Below, in pieces: positions 1,180 through 47,898 of a stretch of DNA of 64,000 bases. The stretch is from Escherichia coli (lineage in GTDB: Bacteria > Pseudomonadota > Gammaproteobacteria > Enterobacterales > Enterobacteriaceae), in the NCBI RefSeq assembly GCF_003334385.1, contig NZ_QOWN01000004.1, one strand, 5' to 3'. The position numbers were made by a program, and so were the translations under genes. Under the pieces are notes generated by a model that was given only the letters and a program-made list of their open reading frames with translations, searched no databases and was not told the DNA's origin. Within the stretch, counting starts at the first letter, position 1. Every line of letters begins with the position of its first letter.

Positions 1180-1522
1180 ATGCGATGTATCTCGCGATTT
1201 TTTTTTGTAACTTTTCCATCTTTTGCTTTTCTCTCCGAGCCGCTTTCCATATCTGCAATCGCATAAAAAACTCTGCTGGCGTTCACAAATGTGCAGGGGT
1301 AAAACGGGGGCACGCTTTGAACGGTGAGTATGAGTGAGGTCGGCTAACTTCCAGCAAGTGGCTATGAACAGCAAAATGGTGGTCGGGTTTGCTTGTTCTT
1401 ACCGTTCAAGCCTTGCAACCGCTGAGAATAATGATGGTGGAATAGAGAGTTTATTTATCGCGGGCATAAAAAAACCCTTACTAACCGAAGCCCGGCGTTC
1501 AGGGTTATTGCGCTAGAAGAAC

Positions 1523-38518: not shown

Positions 38519-39619
38519 GTGATAATCATAAGATATCTGGTGCGGGAGACGCTCAAAAGCCAGCTGGCGATACTCTTCATCTTGCTTTTGATCTTCTTCT
38601 GTCAAAAGTTAGTGAGGATCCTCGGCGCAGCGGTTGACGGCGATATTCCGGCGAATCTGGTGCTCTCCCTTCTCGGGTTGGGCGTGCCGGAAATGGCGCA
38701 GCTTATCCTGCCATTAAGCCTGTTCCTCGGGCTGCTGATGACGCTGGGCAAACTGTATACCGAAAGTGAAATTACGGTAATGCATGCCTGCGGCCTGAGC
38801 AAAGCGGTTCTGGTGAAAGCGGCAATGATCCTTGCGGTATTCACGGCAATCGTCGCGGCGGTTAACGTGATGTGGGCGGGACCGTGGTCATCGCGTCATC
38901 AGGATGAAGTGTTAGCAGAAGCGAAAGCGAACCCTGGCATGGCGGCGCTGGCGCAAGGGCAATTCCAGCAAGCGACTAATGGCAGCTCGGTGCTGTTCAT
39001 CGAAAGCGTTGACGGCAGCGATTTCAAAGATGTGTTCCTCGCACAAATTCGACCAAAAGGTAATGCACGTCCTTCTGTGGTGGTGGCCGATTCCGGACAT
39101 TTAACCCAGCTGCGCGACGGCTCCCAGGTCGTCACTCTCAACCAGGGAACGCGCTTCGAAGGCACTGCACTGTTACGTGATTTCCGCATTACGGATTTCC
39201 AGGATTATCAGGCGATCATTGGTCACCAGGCGGTGGCGCTCGACCCGAACGATACCGACCAGATGGACATGTGCACATTGTGGAACACTGACACCGATCG
39301 TGCTCGCGCAGAACTGAACTGGCGTATCACGTTGGTATTCACCGTGTTTATGATGGCACTTATGGTCGTACCGCTGAGCGTGGTTAACCCACGTCAGGGA
39401 CGCGTACTGTCGATGCTGCCAGCCATGCTGCTGTATCTACTTTTCTTCCTGATCCAGACCTCCCTGAAATCGAACGGCGGTAAAGGTAAGCTGGACCCGA
39501 CGCTGTGGATGTGGACCGTTAACCTGATTTATCTGGCTTTGGCGATTGTTCTCAACCTTTGGGACACCGTGCCGGTCCGCCGCCTGCGCGCCAGTTTTTC
39601 GCGTAAAGGAGCGGTGTGA
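38519..39619 (+). CDS. lptF: LPS export ABC transporter permease LptF
   Basis: 366-aa multi-TM ORF, GTG start, directly upstream of and coupled to lptG. Confidence 0.9.
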   Translation: MIIIRYLVRETLKSQLAILFILLLIFFCQKLVRILGAAVDGDIPANLVLSLLGLGVPEMAQLILPLSLFLGLLMTLGKLYTESEITVMHACGLSKAVLVKAAMILAVFTAIVAAVNVMWAGPWSSRHQDEVLAEAKANPGMAALAQGQFQQATNGSSVLFIESVDGSDFKDVFLAQIRPKGNARPSVVVADSGHLTQLRDGSQVVTLNQGTRFEGTALLRDFRITDFQDYQAIIGHQAVALDPNDTDQMDMCTLWNTDTDRARAELNWRITLVFTVFMMALMVVPLSVVNPRQGRVLSMLPAMLLYLLFFLIQTSLKSNGGKGKLDPTLWMWTVNLIYLALAIVLNLWDTVPVRRLRASFSRKGAV

Positions 39620-40701
39620 TGCAACCTTTTGGCGTACTTGACCGCTATATCGGTAAAACTATTTTCACCACCATCATGATGACGCTGTTCATGCTGGTGT
39701 CGCTGTCGGGCATTATCAAATTTGTCGATCAGTTGAAAAAAGCCGGGCAGGGGAGTTACGACGCGTTAGGCGCAGGAATGTATACCTTGCTGAGCGTGCC
39801 GAAAGATGTGCAAATCTTCTTCCCGATGGCGGCTCTGCTTGGGGCGTTGCTTGGTCTTGGGATGCTGGCGCAGCGCAGCGAACTGGTGGTGATGCAGGCT
39901 TCTGGTTTTACCCGTATGCAGGTGGCGCTGTCGGTGATGAAAACCGCCATTCCGCTGGTCTTGCTGACGATGGCGATTGGCGAATGGGTCGCGCCGCAGG
40001 GCGAGCAGATGGCGCGTAACTACCGTGCGCAGGCGATGTACGGCGGCTCGTTGCTCTCTACCCAGCAAGGCTTATGGGCGAAAGATGGCAACAACTTCGT
40101 CTACATTGAGCGGGTTAAAGGTGACGAAGAGTTAGGTGGCATCAGCATTTATGCCTTTAACGAAAATCGTCGTCTGCAATCCGTACGCTATGCCGCTACT
40201 GCGAAGTTTGACCCGGAACATAAAGTCTGGCGTCTGTCGCAGGTTGATGAATCTGATCTGACCAATCCGAAACAGATTACCGGTTCGCAGACGGTGAGCG
40301 GCACCTGGAAAACCAACCTCACGCCAGACAAACTGGGCGTGGTGGCGCTGGACCCGGATGCACTCTCAATCAGCGGTTTGCACAACTACGTGAAGTATCT
40401 GAAGTCGAGCGGTCAGGATGCCGGACGTTATCAGCTCAACATGTGGAGCAAAATCTTCCAGCCGCTATCCGTGGCGGTGATGATGCTGATGGCGCTGTCG
40501 TTCATCTTTGGCCCACTGCGTAGCGTACCGATGGGCGTGCGTGTGGTCACCGGTATCAGCTTCGGTTTTGTCTTCTACGTACTGGACCAGATCTTCGGCC
40601 CGCTGACGTTGGTTTATGGCATCCCGCCGATCATCGGCGCACTGTTGCCAAGCGCCAGCTTCTTCTTAATCAGCCTGTGGCTGTTAATGAGAAAATCGTA
40701 A
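39619..40701 (+). CDS. lptG: LPS export ABC transporter permease LptG
   Basis: 360-aa ORF from MQPFGVLDRYIGKTIF... Confidence 0.9.
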   Translation: MQPFGVLDRYIGKTIFTTIMMTLFMLVSLSGIIKFVDQLKKAGQGSYDALGAGMYTLLSVPKDVQIFFPMAALLGALLGLGMLAQRSELVVMQASGFTRMQVALSVMKTAIPLVLLTMAIGEWVAPQGEQMARNYRAQAMYGGSLLSTQQGLWAKDGNNFVYIERVKGDEELGGISIYAFNENRRLQSVRYAATAKFDPEHKVWRLSQVDESDLTNPKQITGSQTVSGTWKTNLTPDKLGVVALDPDALSISGLHNYVKYLKSSGQDAGRYQLNMWSKIFQPLSVAVMMLMALSFIFGPLRSVPMGVRVVTGISFGFVFYVLDQIFGPLTLVYGIPPIIGALLPSASFFLISLWLLMRKS

Positions 40702-40819
40702 CCAAGCAAGGGAGCGAAAGCTCCCTTTCACATTGTTGATAAAGTCAAATACGAGTTCGATCGGTCCCCTCGCCCCTTTGGGGAGAGGGTTAGGGTGAGG
40801 GGCACAGACCGCACCTGAC

Positions 40820-42322
40820 TTACCTTCTTCTCCCCCCCAGCAAACTCCCCAACATCCCGCGTACAATCTGATTCGTCACCTGGCGGGCGGCGCTTTTCGC
40901 CATTGTTTGCACCACACCATCTTTCTTACCGCCGCGTGGTCCGGTAGTGCCGAACAAAATATCCTTCAATCCACCAAGAATGCCGTCATCCACCGCTACC
41001 TCTTTCCCTTTCGCGGGGGGATTATTTTGCTGCTCGGTACTGGCCTGAAAGCCTTTTTGCAACATCTCATAGGCGGATTCCCGGTCCACCTCATCCTCGT
41101 ACTTGCCATACACCGGAGAGTGATTAATCAAGCCATTACGCTCATCTTCCGTCACCGGTCCCATCCGCGAACAAGGCGCAATCACCATCGCCCGTTCCAC
41201 CACTGAAGGACTTCCTTTCACATCAAGAAACGAGATTAACGCCTCGCCGGTCCCCAGTTCCTGGATTGCCTTTTCGGTATCAAATGCCGGATTGGCCCGC
41301 ATGGTTTGCGCCGCAGCTTTTACCGCTTTCTGATCTTTGGGCGTAAAAGCACGCAAAGCGTGTTGAACGCGATTACCGAGCTGCCCGAGCACATTATCCG
41401 GAATATCAGACGGGTTTTGCGAAACGAACCAGACGCCCACGCCTTTTGAGCGAATAAGCCGTATCACCTGCTCAATCTTATCCAGCAGTACCTGCGGTGC
41501 ATCGTTAAACAGCAGATGTGCCTCGTCGAAGAAAAACACCAGTTTTGGTTTCTCCAGATCGCCCGCTTCCGGCAATTGTTCATACAACTCTGAAAGCATC
41601 CACAGCAGGCTGGCGGCGTACAGTTTCGGCATCTGATAAAGCTTCTCGGCGCTGAGGATATTGATAACGCCTTTACCGTTGGTATCGGTGCGCATCCAGT
41701 CTTTGATATCCAGCATCGGCTCGCCAAAGAAGTGTGCTGCGCCTTGCTGTTACAGCGACAACAGTCCGCGCTGGATGGCACCAACCGATGCGCTACTGAT
41801 ATTACCGTACTGATTCTGGAAAGATTTGGCGTTATCGCCGATGTACTGGGTAATCGCCCGCAGATCTTTAAAGTCGAGCAGCAACAATCCCTGATCGTCC
41901 GCAATGCGGAAGATAATATTCAGCACGCCAGATTGCACATCGTTGAGATTCAACAGTCGTGCCAGCAACAGCGGCCCCAGATCCGAAACCGTCGCCCGCA
42001 CCGGATGGCCTTTCTCGCCAAAGATATCCCACACCACCACCGGATTGGCATGCGGTTGCCAGTCGTTGACGCCGATATTTTTCAGTCTTGCGAGCAGTTT
42101 TTCCGACGCCGTTCCTGCCTGCGCGATGCCGGTCAGATCGCCTTTCACATCGGCCATAAACACCGGAACACCGATTTCCGACAATGACTCTGCCAGTTTT
42201 TGCAACGTGACAGTTTTACCCGTCCCCGTTGCGCCAGTAATCAGCCCGTGACGGTTAGCCATTCCCGGCAATAAAAACAGTTCTGTGTCCGGCGTGCGGG
42301 CAATTAACAGGGGTTCGCTCAT
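40820..42322 (-). pseudogene. yjgR: yjgR (DUF853 P-loop NTPase) with an in-frame TAA at 41750-41752
   Basis: ORFs 41750-42370 and 40820-41716 share one frame and read through sensibly apart from the single TAA; Walker A GATGTGKT; combined length from MSEPLL start is 500 codons. Confidence 0.6.
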
Positions 42323-42451
42323 GAGATATCCTCCAGTTTCCTGCCTGGAGTATAGGCAACGGCTGCGCACTCTTCACCGCTAAATTCAGCAGATTGCGAG
42401 ATGCCTTCCAAAGAGATTTAAGTGCCGGGCGACAGGCACCCGGCAAAGGGA

Positions 42452-43471
42452 TCAGAAGTCGGCTTTCAGAACCACGCGGTAACGCGCCTTACCGTCGCGC
42501 ACATGCTTGATGGCATCGTTAATTTTCGACATCGGGAACAGTTCGGTGGTCGGCGCAACCTTGCTGCGGGCGGCAAAGCGCATCAGCTTACGCAACTCAT
42601 AAGGCGTGCCGGTAGCAGAGCCAGAGACACTGCGGTCGCCCGCAATTAACGTAAAGGCCGGAACAGACAGCGGCGTGAGAACCGCACCGACCGTATGGAA
42701 ATTACCGCCATACGTCAGCGCCTCAAAATAAGGCTGCCAGTCGAGGCTGACGTTGACGGTGTTGATAATGAGATCGAACTGCCCCGCAAGTGTTTTCAGT
42801 GCCTGCGGATCGCGGCTATTCACCACTTTATCGGCACCCATCGCCAGTACTTCCTGCTCTTTCGCCGGATTAGAACTAAAGGCCGTCACCTCGCATCCCA
42901 TTGCGTGCAGAAGTTTTATAGCGATATGCCCCAGCCCGCCAATACCAATTACCCCAACGCGGCTGGTAGCAGTGATATGGTGCATCAACAGTGGTTTAAA
43001 GACCGTGATACCGCCGCACAACAGCGGCCCGGCGGACTCGATATCAATATTTTCTGGCAGTGGAATCACCCATTGCCAGTCCGCACGCAACTTCTCGGCA
43101 AAGCCACCGCGATTCATAATTGTTGGTACCGCACCTTGCTCACAGTTGATCTGATTACCACTAATACAGGCGTCGCAGTGACCACAGCTACGCGCCGTCC
43201 AGCCAATCCCGACACGCTGACCGACCTGCAAACCTTTATCCTGTGCGGCGCTCCCGAGCGCCACTACGCGACCAATCACCTCATGCCCGGCAATCAGCGG
43301 ATATTGTGAAAATCCCCATTCATTGTCGATCATCGATAGATCGGAATGGCAGATCCCGCAATAATCCACCTGCACTTCAATATCTTGTGGCCTCAGCTCA
43401 CCGGGATCGTACTCATAAACTTCCAGTTCGCCGCCCGCTTCTTTTGCGGCATAGCTTCTTATCATCGACAT
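42452..43471 (-). CDS. ahr: NADPH-dependent aldehyde reductase Ahr (YjgB), zinc alcohol dehydrogenase family
   Basis: 339-aa protein from [22 protein letters not shown]...; zinc ligands CGICHSD and CGHCDAC. Confidence 0.9.
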
Positions 43472-43609
43472 TTTTTGGTCCTTCTCTGGTGTTGTCTGGG
43501 AAGTGTAGAGCATGGCAGGGCGGGGTGCCTGGAGTGTGACAAAGGTTACACATCGCTGTATGCAATGCTGAAAATTTCAGCACTTAGCGAGGTGCGAGCA
43601 AGCTGGCGC

Positions 43610-43637
43610 TTGCATGGTGGCGTGCGACAGGTATAAT
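43610..43637 (+). promoter_or_regulatory. leuX promoter (-35 ttgcat, 16-bp spacer, -10 tataat)
   Basis: ttgcat at 43610-43615 and tataat at 43632-43637, about 30 nt upstream of the mature tRNA 5' end. Confidence 0.65.
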
Positions 43638-43666
43638 CCACAACGTTTTCCGCATACCTCTTCAGT

Positions 43667-43751
43667 GCCGAAGTGGCGAAATCGGTAGACGCAGTTGATT
43701 CAAAATCAACCGTAGAAATACGTGCCGGTTCGAGTCCGGCCTTCGGCACCA
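43667..43751 (+). tRNA. leuX: tRNA-Leu (anticodon CAA)
   Basis: 85-nt sequence gccgaagtggcgaaatcggtagac...ggttcgagtccggccttcggcacca with anticodon loop ttgattCAAaatcaa and encoded CCA. Confidence 0.95.
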
Positions 43752-43764
43752 TCGGAGCATCAAT

Positions 43765-43788
43765 AGACGTCAACGGACGTCTTTTTTT
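43765..43788 (+). terminator. Intrinsic terminator after leuX
   Basis: Hairpin agacgtc-aacg-gacgtct followed by a T run. Confidence 0.75.
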
Positions 43789-43937
43789 GTGCCTGAAATC
43801 CAGTATTTACCCATCATTCCCGCTATATTAACTCTCTCAAGGTCAACCGACTTCAACGTACATCTACCAACAGATGTTGGTACAGATGATGGTATTTCCG
43901 GTTCGATAATGCTTGTACCAACAGGGAGGGGATAAGC

Positions 43938-45182
43938 ATGGCTCTAACAGATATCAAAGTCAGAACAGCTAAGCCAACAGATAAGCAATACAAGTTAACT
44001 GATGGCAGTGGTATGCATCTTCTTGTCCACCCTAATGGTTCTAAGTACTGGCGTTTGCAGTACCGTTTTGACGGCAAGCAAAAGATGCTGGCTTTAGGTG
44101 TTTATCCTGACGTGTCGCTTGCCGATGCACGGACTCGCCGTGACGACGCTCGTAATTTGTTGGCAAACAACATCGACCCGGGAGACAAAAAGAAAAGTGA
44201 TAAAATTGAGCAAGAAGAAGCCCGCACTTTTGAACAACTCGCAGTTGAGTGGCATGCAACAAATAAAAAGTGGTCGGAAGAACATAGCAGGCGAGTACTG
44301 AAAAGCCTGGAGGATAATCTGTTTCCAGCTATTGGTAAGCGGAATATTGCGGATCTCAAAACCCGAGACCTGCTAGCCCCAATCAAAGCCGTTGAACTGT
44401 CAGGACGGCTTGAGGTTGCTTCACGATTACAACAGCGAACCACGGCAATTATGCGCTATGCCGTGCAGAGTGGTTTACTGGACTATAACCCCGCGCAGGA
44501 GATGGTTGGCGCTGTTGCTTCAAGTAACAGACAGCATCGACCTGCTCTTCAGTTGAAGCGAATCCCAGAACTATTACGGCGCATAGATAGTTATACCGGT
44601 AGACCTCTTACTAGACTTGCCGTCGAACTCACGCTCCTGGTATTCATTCGTTCAAGTGAACTACGCTTTGCTCGTTGGTCTGAGATCGATTTCGAAACAT
44701 CAATGTGGACAATACCTGCAGAGCGCGAAGCTATTGACGGAGTAAAGCATTCACAGCGTGGTTCAAAAATGCGTACGCCTCATCTGGTGCCGCTTTCTCA
44801 TCAAGCTTTAGCAATTCTTAAAGATGTTTACAAACTTAGTGGTGATCGCGATTTTGTTTTCATCGGCGATCATGACCATCGCAAACCGATGAGTGAAAAC
44901 ACGGTGAACAAGGCGCTGCGCGTTATGGGTTATGACACGAAGGTAGAGGTTTGTGGGCACGGTTTCAGGACAATGGCCTGTAGTTCATTGATCGAGTCTG
45001 GATTGTGGTCGAGGGATGCAGTGGAAAGGCAGATGAGCCATATGGAACGTAACTCAGTACGCGCAGCTTACATTCATAAGGCCGAACATCTTGATGAACG
45101 GCGACTGATGCTGCAGTGGTGGGCTGATTTTTTGGATGCGAATAGGGAAAGCGAAGTTAGCCCTTATGACTTTGGCAAATAG
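43938..45182 (+). CDS. P4-type tyrosine integrase
   Basis: 414-aa ORF with C-terminal tyrosine-recombinase motifs (HGFRTMACS, RAAYIHK); good RBS gggagggg; adjacent to the tRNA 3' end. Confidence 0.9.
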   Translation: MALTDIKVRTAKPTDKQYKLTDGSGMHLLVHPNGSKYWRLQYRFDGKQKMLALGVYPDVSLADARTRRDDARNLLANNIDPGDKKKSDKIEQEEARTFEQLAVEWHATNKKWSEEHSRRVLKSLEDNLFPAIGKRNIADLKTRDLLAPIKAVELSGRLEVASRLQQRTTAIMRYAVQSGLLDYNPAQEMVGAVASSNRQHRPALQLKRIPELLRRIDSYTGRPLTRLAVELTLLVFIRSSELRFARWSEIDFETSMWTIPAEREAIDGVKHSQRGSKMRTPHLVPLSHQALAILKDVYKLSGDRDFVFIGDHDHRKPMSENTVNKALRVMGYDTKVEVCGHGFRTMACSSLIESGLWSRDAVERQMSHMERNSVRAAYIHKAEHLDERRLMLQWWADFLDANRESEVSPYDFGK

Positions 45183-45284
45183 TCTAATTCCTGATGCTTG
45201 CTATGTTCGATTTTGAAAAGCCGGCTTGAACTATAACCTATACTTTTTTATAACTGTATTATTCTGGCGACTCAGAGGTGCACT

Positions 45285-45518
45285 ATGAAAACTTTCGATA
45301 CTCAACTTGCGATGAGCATTGTATCGCACTCAACGGGAGGTTTTAGTTATGACACCCTAGCTAGAGCGTTGATTTCTAAAGATAAAAATGAAAATCCTGA
45401 CGACCTTCTTGAGTCGTGTCGAAATTTTTGTCTCTCTCTTGAGGAAAAAGGTATTCTGAGGCGATGCCAAAGATGTTCTCATTCTCAAGATGAGTATTTC
45501 GAGTATATTCCTCACTAA
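45285..45518 (+). CDS. Hypothetical small protein (77 aa) with CxxC pair
   Basis: AT-rich ORF with RBS (cagagg) and RRCQRCSHS near the C-terminus; followed by a perfect palindrome; no recognisable family. Confidence 0.4.
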   Translation: MKTFDTQLAMSIVSHSTGGFSYDTLARALISKDKNENPDDLLESCRNFCLSLEEKGILRRCQRCSHSQDEYFEYIPH

Positions 45519-45519
45519 C

Positions 45520-45551
45520 ATCAGTCCCTGAAAAAATTTTCAGGGACTGAT
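45520..45551. terminator. Perfect 14-bp-arm palindrome (possible bidirectional terminator or protein binding site)
   Basis: atcagtccctgaaaa-aa-ttttcagggactgat immediately after the 77-aa ORF stop. Confidence 0.5.
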
Positions 45552-45617
45552 TACTCCGCTCTTGTCATCCCCTTTTTTCTCCTGTAGCTTGTGTAACACG
45601 ATTCTGGGGGGGCGATT

Positions 45618-46574
45618 GTGAGCAACATCAACTTAATAACCACATGTACAAACGGCAAACACTACGGTAGTAGGGATATATTGAGTCTGAGTCAATTTTC
45701 ATCAGGCCGAACCCCTTCAAATGTGCTCGTGAATTCTTGGTGCAATGCTCTGAATGAAGCTATTTCTACATCTGCAACTATATGTGCAGAGGATCTTTAT
45801 AAAGGTGGGCACTGGGCGACGGCTAAAGCCATCTTAGATGATTATCCTATTGATTTATGGATTCTTTCTGCTGGTTTAGGACTCCTTCACCACAAAGACA
45901 ATGTTGTACCTTATAAAGCGACCTTTGCTGTTGGATATGACGAATCAATACCATTATATTCTCAAGAATATGTAGGGAAAAGTTTTCATAGAACATGGTG
46001 GAAAGAAATAACCAATAGATCTATTTTTAAATCTAAGCATCCTACATCTATTGTAGAATTAATGAAAAAAAGAAAAAGAGACTATTATATTATCTGTGGT
46101 TCTCCAGATTATATTAATGCAATTGAACTAGATATCATTAATGGTCTTGAGTATCTAGTTGATGCAAAAAAACAACTGCTTATTATAACTTCCAAAAAAA
46201 TCAATGGTAGGTTAACTACATACCTTTTCAAAACCAACCAAAATATGGCTCAGTGGCTGAGATGCAATATGCTCATGCTTAATATCAGTGTGGCAAAATA
46301 CATTGTGAAGGAATTTACGTCAAAACAACTCAATGATTTAAATGAGTTATCTCAAAAGTTAATAGAAGAACTCAAGGAGTTACCTGAGCGTGAAGTGAAA
46401 AAAGGAATTCGTCGTAGTCCGGAGGAAGTTAAGTCTTTCATTTTAAAGATTATGGAGAAAAATCCTGGTATCAGTGCTACACACGCGTTGCGTGAATTTC
46501 GTGACTCGGGAAATTCATTTGAGGAAAAACGTTTTCGGACTGAGTTTATGGCCCTGAGAGAGGCTAAACCTTAA
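45618..46574 (+). CDS. Hypothetical protein (318 aa), first gene of the putative modification module; possibly DpdC-like by context only
   Basis: AT-rich ORF with GTG start and G-rich RBS; no motif I can assign; sits directly upstream of the TGT-like gene. Confidence 0.5.
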   Translation: MSNINLITTCTNGKHYGSRDILSLSQFSSGRTPSNVLVNSWCNALNEAISTSATICAEDLYKGGHWATAKAILDDYPIDLWILSAGLGLLHHKDNVVPYKATFAVGYDESIPLYSQEYVGKSFHRTWWKEITNRSIFKSKHPTSIVELMKKRKRDYYIICGSPDYINAIELDIINGLEYLVDAKKQLLIITSKKINGRLTTYLFKTNQNMAQWLRCNMLMLNISVAKYIVKEFTSKQLNDLNELSQKLIEELKELPEREVKKGIRRSPEEVKSFILKIMEKNPGISATHALREFRDSGNSFEEKRFRTEFMALREAKP

Positions 46575-46626
46575 TGCTACTTGCCTGGGTTTCATGGTAG
46601 AATCCCCCGTTTTTTGAGGCTTTGCA

Positions 46627-47898
46627 GTGGCGTCACAGGAGAGTAAGTTGTCGAAGCTAAAGTATTTTTTCCCTGATAGTCAGGATTTTATCGATCCCAG
46701 TTTCGACTTCTTCCGCGAAACGCGTAACGAACATCGCGTGCGTCAACGTGACGATCAGTATCCGCATGAGGTTTTTCCTCATCCTTACGATGGTATGCTG
46801 GTTTCTAAAGCTGTAGTTGATGGTCTTGGCGGCGGCGAGAGCAAATATACTCGTGCCCAGCGTTTGCGTTACTTCCGTAATGGAATGAAGCACTTTTTCC
46901 GTCTGCCGGAAAATATGGAAACTATGGGTGATTGCGGAGCCTTCACATATGTTAATCAGGACGTCCCGCCATACCGTGTGGAAGAGGTGATTGAGTTTTA
47001 CGAAACTTCCCGCTTTAACCATGGCGTTTCTCTCGATCATATCGTTTTTGGCTATGAAAAACCTGGTGAGGTATTCAGTGGCGAAGTGTTGGCTGAATGT
47101 CGCCGACGCCAGGATATCACTCTGACCTTGGCTCAAGAGTTTTTAAACAAGTCTCAAAAGTCCTGTTTCACTCCCTTTGGCGTTGCACATGGATGGAGCA
47201 AAACCTCCTATCGTCAGTCTGTAGAGGCCCTGCTGGCCATGGGATACAGAAATATCACCATGGGGGGGATGGTGCCGTTGAAAACGGCGCAGATCCTTGA
47301 GACTCTCGAAGAGATTAAACCGCTGCTGAAAAGTGATACACGTATTCACTTGCTTGGCATTGCCCGTCCAGAGAGTTTCGCCGACTTTATCAAGTTTGGT
47401 GTGACCAGTATTGACTCGACAACACCGCTGCAGCAAGCCTTCAAAGATCGGAAAAACAACTATCATACGCCTGATGGCCCGGCCTATACCGCTGTGCGTG
47501 TCCCTCAGTTTGATGCGAATCCAAGTTTGAGTCGCAAAATAAAATCTGGCGTGATTGATCAGGATATTGCACGACATCTAGAAAAGGATGCCATGGCTGC
47601 CCTGTTTGAATATGATAAAGGGGCTTTGTCACTTGAGAAGACTCTTGATGCAGTCCTGGCATATGAACGCCTCCATTCGGGTGAAAAAGAGGCCGATAAA
47701 ATCCGTGCGGATTATGAACGTACGCTAGGAGAACGTCCTTGGAACCAATGCCAGTGCAATATTTGCCAGGCCATCGGTATCAACGTCATCATTTTCCGCG
47801 GAGCAGAACGTAACCGTCGCCGCGGTTTCCATAATATTCAGGTGTTGTACAACCGTTTACAGCACACATTGTCATTACGCTCAGAGGAACTGTCATGA
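46627..47898 (+). CDS. dpdA: tRNA-guanine-transglycosylase-like protein (DpdA-like DNA 7-deazaguanine transglycosylase candidate)
   Basis: 423-aa ORF, GTG start with gagg RBS; C-terminal zinc motif CQCNIC followed 22 residues later by His (TGT-type CxCxxC...H); DCGAF and DSTTP segments. Confidence 0.65.
   Translation: MASQESKLSKLKYFFPDSQDFIDPSFDFFRETRNEHRVRQRDDQYPHEVFPHPYDGMLVSKAVVDGLGGGESKYTRAQRLRYFRNGMKHFFRLPENMETMGDCGAFTYVNQDVPPYRVEEVIEFYETSRFNHGVSLDHIVFGYEKPGEVFSGEVLAECRRRQDITLTLAQEFLNKSQKSCFTPFGVAHGWSKTSYRQSVEALLAMGYRNITMGGMVPLKTAQILETLEEIKPLLKSDTRIHLLGIARPESFADFIKFGVTSIDSTTPLQQAFKDRKNNYHTPDGPAYTAVRVPQFDANPSLSRKIKSGVIDQDIARHLEKDAMAALFEYDKGALSLEKTLDAVLAYERLHSGEKEADKIRADYERTLGERPWNQCQCNICQAIGINVIIFRGAERNRRRGFHNIQVLYNRLQHTLSLRSEELS

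Follow-up and report, generated by a model that had tools for sequence, protein, structure and literature searches.

The stretch of DNA analysed here (the window) comprises 64,000 nucleotides of the Escherichia coli contig NZ_QOWN01000004.1 and contains yjgR on its minus strand, with ahr directly upstream (window 42323-43513) and lptG (39619..40701, plus strand) convergent with it, yjgR being the last gene in its own orientation. In place of an uninterrupted gene, two minus-strand open reading frames (ORFs; 41750..42370 and 40820..41716) lie in a common frame, as the first-pass annotation of the window had reported; its coordinates, its peptide and the TAA between the two ORFs (41752..41750 when read in the minus-strand sequence) all proved correct. 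The features discussed below, including a second nonsense mutation elsewhere in the window, are as follows.

40820..42322, minus strand: yjgR, ancestrally a gene of 500 codons and here a pseudogene, recognized by near-identity over 1801 nt and by its match to Pfam HerA_C
41750..41752, minus strand: premature TAA at codon 191 (ancestral GAA, Glu)
41752: mutated base, G>T on the coding strand, that is, C>A on the plus strand
41753..42322, minus strand: ORF of the N-terminal fragment, 190 aa, with Walker A
40820..41716, minus strand: ORF of the C-terminal remnant, 298 aa, from the ATG at 41716 (Met203), with Walker B
28194-28196, plus strand: R111* (CGA>TGA) in a yjgL-like hypothetical gene (27864-29459)

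The identity of the gene is evident from both its sequence and its position. The repaired YjgR matches Pfam HerA_C (PF05872, formerly DUF853) over its full length (residues 5-500, E=6e-254) and is near-identical to PDB 11kk (that is, 'HerA like helicase YjgR', six chains), which bears out the initial description of the gene as a conserved DUF853 ATPase. The Walker A motif GATGTGKT occupies residues 30-37 (window 42235..42212) and the Walker B motif LVFFFDE residues 261-267 (about window 41542..41522). When window 40700-42500 was searched by megablast against 5426 complete E. coli genomes, the gene was annotated throughout as yjgR ('helicase HerA-like C-terminal domain-containing protein') with ahr and lptG as neighbours, and the gene of the window, convergent with lptG, has one mismatch in 1801 nt to at least 38 genomes in which yjgR is annotated. 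YjgR of E. coli K-12 (UniProt P39342; PDB 11kk) is the product of the same gene, as residues 1-500 align with few substitutions and the Walker A and Walker B motifs and the place beside lptG are common to both; unlike the K-12 gene, the window allele has TAA for Glu191. According to bioRxiv 10.1101/2025.04.28.650974, YjgR is an uncharacterised P-loop NTPase on which ATP has a strong stabilising effect, and we found no functional characterisation of yjgR or DUF853 beyond ATP binding in the literature searched.

Around the site, the minus-strand codons read GGA CTG TTG TCG CTG TAA CAG CAA GGC GCA, and translation of 42325..40820 (minus strand) yields a single continuous frame, with sensible protein on either side of this sole internal stop and the normal stop at its end. 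The annotation of near-identical genomes in RefSeq places the true start of yjgR at the ATG at 42322 (1503 nt, 500 aa), which makes the premature stop codon 191. A chance pattern can be ruled out: identity to intact, annotated yjgR genes is 99.9%, and across 1801 nt only the first base of the codon differs. The lesion is a single base (that is, E191*), and the original claim of a nonsense mutation stands.

Several features of the surroundings are recorded here in their own right. A Dpd (7-deazaguanine DNA modification and restriction) island, window 43667-64000, is inserted at the tRNA-Leu(CAA) gene leuX directly upstream of ahr-yjgR, with the gene order integrase, hypothetical gene, dpdA, dpdB and dpdE to dpdJ (with neither dpdC nor dpdD annotated between dpdB and dpdE). 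A 24-kb query (window 30000-54000), which takes in the island's first 10 kb, reaches at least 80% coverage in only 44 of the 5426 complete E. coli genomes. Four other contigs (L007, L009, L015 and L026) have idn genes ahead of yjgR, namely a LacI-family regulator resembling idnR and a GntP permease resembling idnT, which the window locus lacks. On the other side of the gene, a query across the yjgR-lptG spacer (40702-40819) has a median of 5 matching places in each E. coli genome, and 40773, within this spacer, is the end point of several Logan contigs; together these suggest a dispersed REP-type repeat in or near the spacer, although a scan with a 9-nt seed found no inverted repeat there. Farther away, the holC-pepA spacer (36440-36735) holds a 96-bp tandem repeat (3.1 copies, 93% matches) with REP/BIME-like palindromic units. 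The chpS-chpB toxin-antitoxin pair, which lies between ytfP and ppa in the genome of strain MEI4BO-21, is absent at window 1306-1435, and the ytfP-ppa gap measures about 129 nt in the window versus about 635 nt in MEI4BO-21.

Ancestral codon and quality of the window sequence

The yjgR stretch is present in all 5426 complete genomes and covered to at least 80% in 5425 of them, which identifies yjgR as a core gene. Alignment to the yjgR of other E. coli gives GAA (Glu191) as the ancestral codon: in the complete genomes that differ from window 40700-42500 at one base in 1801 nt (at least 38), the shared difference was placed at 41752, with GAA on the coding strand there, by direct comparison with two of them. 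Exact identity to the window was seen in no complete RefSeq E. coli genome. For the TAA allele, neither a 61-mer nor a 35-mer with the site at its centre had an exact match among 4433 complete RefSeq genomes, the G version of the 35-mer being matched exactly in 4423 of these, and the TAA 35-mer was found neither in the GTDB species representatives nor in JGI metagenome contigs. The gene thus has the form of a nonsense pseudogene, with a single in-frame stop where all close relatives and the 4423 genomes have GAA, and on these comparisons of sequence E191* is judged to be derived and rare.

The sequence around the lesion is otherwise unremarkable. Between window 30000-64000 and the closest genome, MEI4BO-21, there are 8 SNPs and no indels, and relative to the three closest genomes four SNPs in these 34 kb are private to the window: two synonymous (yjgN F161F and holC A127A), one missense (dpdG L257F) and one nonsense (yjgR E191*). 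The missense change is CTT>TTT in dpdG codon 257 (window 55632, plus strand). When 48 reference genes were mapped onto the window, an internal stop was seen in yjgR alone, there were no frameshifts and the rest (~45) were intact; a flag raised for argF reflects its allelic 3′ end and was rejected as a lesion. The intact mapped genes speak against a poor-quality assembly, and the overall pattern is like that of ordinary divergence. The first part of the window has a different relationship to MEI4BO-21, with roughly 0.5-3% difference across window 1-29600 (peaking at 28000-29600) versus the 8 SNPs of 30000-64000, and the sharp mosaic boundary at about 29600-30000 suggests a recombination junction.

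Separately from the 48-gene mapping, the second nonsense mutation was found in the yjgL-like gene (531 codons), where R111* leaves pieces of 110 aa and 415 aa. The intact version of this gene is WP_000036448.1 in strain 7/2, and R111* is the sole mismatch in 1701 nt to many complete genomes. The mutation is reproduced, with 100% identical flanks, in the Logan run ERR271226, one further sample and two similar places.

Genuine mutation or sequencing error

The first-pass annotation had offered either a pseudogene or a sequencing error as the origin of the TAA, and of these the pseudogene is favoured, as the identical TAA with 100% identical flanks recurs in Logan assemblies. A 29,225-bp Logan contig from run ERR1948963 has the TAA with the 190-aa and 298-aa ORFs side by side, matches window 40773-51716 without a difference (100% identity) in the 10.9 kb retrieved, and is held by two samples (this run and one further sample), with five similar places. 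Public assemblies record both the 190-aa N-terminal product and the 298-aa downstream ORF in exactly this form; most of the public '190-aa' records are contigs that end at base 570 of yjgR and do not include the stop. The TAA is also present in a contig of SRR15732004 whose identity to the window is only 96.3% (113 mismatches in 3 kb) and which therefore represents an independent origin of E191*, and two independent occurrences are known in all.

The competing explanation holds that the true codon is GAA and that the T was miscalled in the consensus (through an oxidative G>T artefact of the library, for instance). In its favour, the allele occurs in no complete RefSeq genome, GTDB representative or JGI metagenome contig, and the change belongs to the class (G>T / C>A) that is typical of 8-oxoG artefacts. 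However, the presence of the same TAA in public read assemblies makes a one-off assembly error unlikely, and one of these has a different allele background (SRR15732004). Another 4423 genomes have the identical surrounding sequence and all of them keep the G, which disfavours a systematic error. Furthermore, the 34 kb of the window show no indels or other signs of low quality, and the second private nonsense mutation is likewise reproduced in other runs. We consider an error of this kind quite unlikely and conclude, on the basis of the read assemblies, that the TAA is most probably a genuine mutation of the lineage; the window assembly might itself derive from one of the public runs.

Consequence for YjgR and other readings of the truncation

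We regard it as very probable that a recent, lineage-specific G>T turned codon 191 of yjgR from GAA to TAA and left a loss-of-function pseudogene in this strain. The mutational cause would be a spontaneous G:C>T:A transversion, and the change was presumably neutral or nearly so. Translation would stop after 190 of the 500 residues, yielding a truncated product that would keep the P-loop (Walker A) and lack Walker B along with the C-terminal 62% of the protein. YjgR is predicted to be a HerA-like P-loop ATPase of the hexamer type, whose relatives act as ring ATPases, and given that the stop parts Walker A from Walker B, we infer that ATPase function is lost; on this reading of the sequence, the function of YjgR is expected to be abolished. 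A polar effect is not expected, as the next gene (lptG) is convergent. The ATG at 41716 (Met203) is in frame 12 codons past the stop, with the weak Shine-Dalgarno-like GGCGAG three bases ahead of it, and some reinitiation could occur at this codon, the only route to the 298-aa piece, producing a fragment that would have no P-loop. A suppressor tRNA next door was also considered and rejected, as the adjacent leuX has the normal CAA anticodon.

Other disrupted alleles of yjgR are found in public assemblies. Q193* (CAA>TAA) occurs in ERZ24911487 and SRR20550198, and further alleles leave N-terminal fragments of 54, 158, 163 and 171 aa. These resemble the window allele in being independent inactivating lesions in the N-terminal half that leave the same 298-aa downstream ORF, yet the position and type of the lesion are unlike those of E191*, and some of them may have arisen as errors in the assembly of metagenomes or long reads. 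The occurrence of E191* in a 96%-identical background and of Q193* elsewhere fits the background pseudogenisation expected across very many sequenced E. coli. We find it most doubtful that the loss of YjgR is instead non-neutral, with E191* in two backgrounds together with Q193* reflecting recurrent selection against YjgR or a local hotspot; if this were true, the nonsense mutation in the yjgL-like gene would hint at ongoing gene decay.

It is highly improbable that the cell makes both the 190-aa and the 298-aa piece and that these join into an active ATPase (that is, a functional split of the gene), or that the truncation has been positively selected. The in-frame ATG shortly after the stop, the 298-aa ORF predicted from it by gene callers and the repeated disruption at this point (two backgrounds for E191*, with a third set of samples for Q193*) would be compatible with a split, but residues 191-202 would be lost, the two Walker motifs would sit on separate chains and the Shine-Dalgarno-like sequence ahead of Met203 is weak. 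Moreover, essentially all E. coli retain the fused yjgR, the remaining disrupted alleles break at scattered sites with no clustering beyond the effect of the search method itself, and the repeat of one nonsense SNP would be expected given the very large number of sequenced E. coli.

We give next to no credence to the remaining possibilities, namely that the TAA is decoded as a sense codon (by recoding or readthrough) or that the site is a quasi-palindrome template-switching hotspot: a stop at codon 191 is found in none of the 4433 genomes, nor among the GTDB representatives or JGI metagenomes, and no recoding of TAA is known in E. coli. The hotspot takes its appeal from the position of the mutated base, which falls within the 3-nt loop of an inverted repeat with 4-bp arms (GCTG-GAA-CAGC); G>T renders this repeat more symmetrical (GCTGT-A-ACAGC). 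Against it, the local DNA fold is no stabler than that of shuffled sequence (z = -0.39 and -0.28) and is the same in wild type and mutant, and described quasi-palindrome hotspots have arms far longer than 4 bp. Templated mutation of the quasi-palindrome was set aside as improbable on these grounds. A pile-up of contig breaks was examined as a further sign of a hotspot or of polymorphism within samples, as many Logan contigs end at base 570 of yjgR, just ahead of the mutated base; it was rejected because the counts at other fragment lengths (22 contigs with N-terminal fragments of 183 aa, 38 of 185 aa, 21 of 190 aa, 11 of 191 aa and 19 of 192 aa) show that this break is not special, public contigs ending here no more commonly than at neighbouring codons.

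Annotation and use of the probable natural knock-out

A recent loss of function by a single base change remains the preferred reading, and E191* makes yjgR, a conserved gene, into a genuine if ordinary nonsense pseudogene specific to the strain, a routine and unsurprising finding. The correct annotation in this genome is a yjgR pseudogene (E191*), not two genes, and E191* can be used together with R111* of the yjgL-like gene as a marker of the lineage. As natural YjgR knock-outs, strains of this kind indicate that at least some wild lineages can do without the gene. Given that YjgR is a core E. coli ATPase that has a solved structure and no assigned function, the knock-out strains could offer ready-made mutants for phenotyping.
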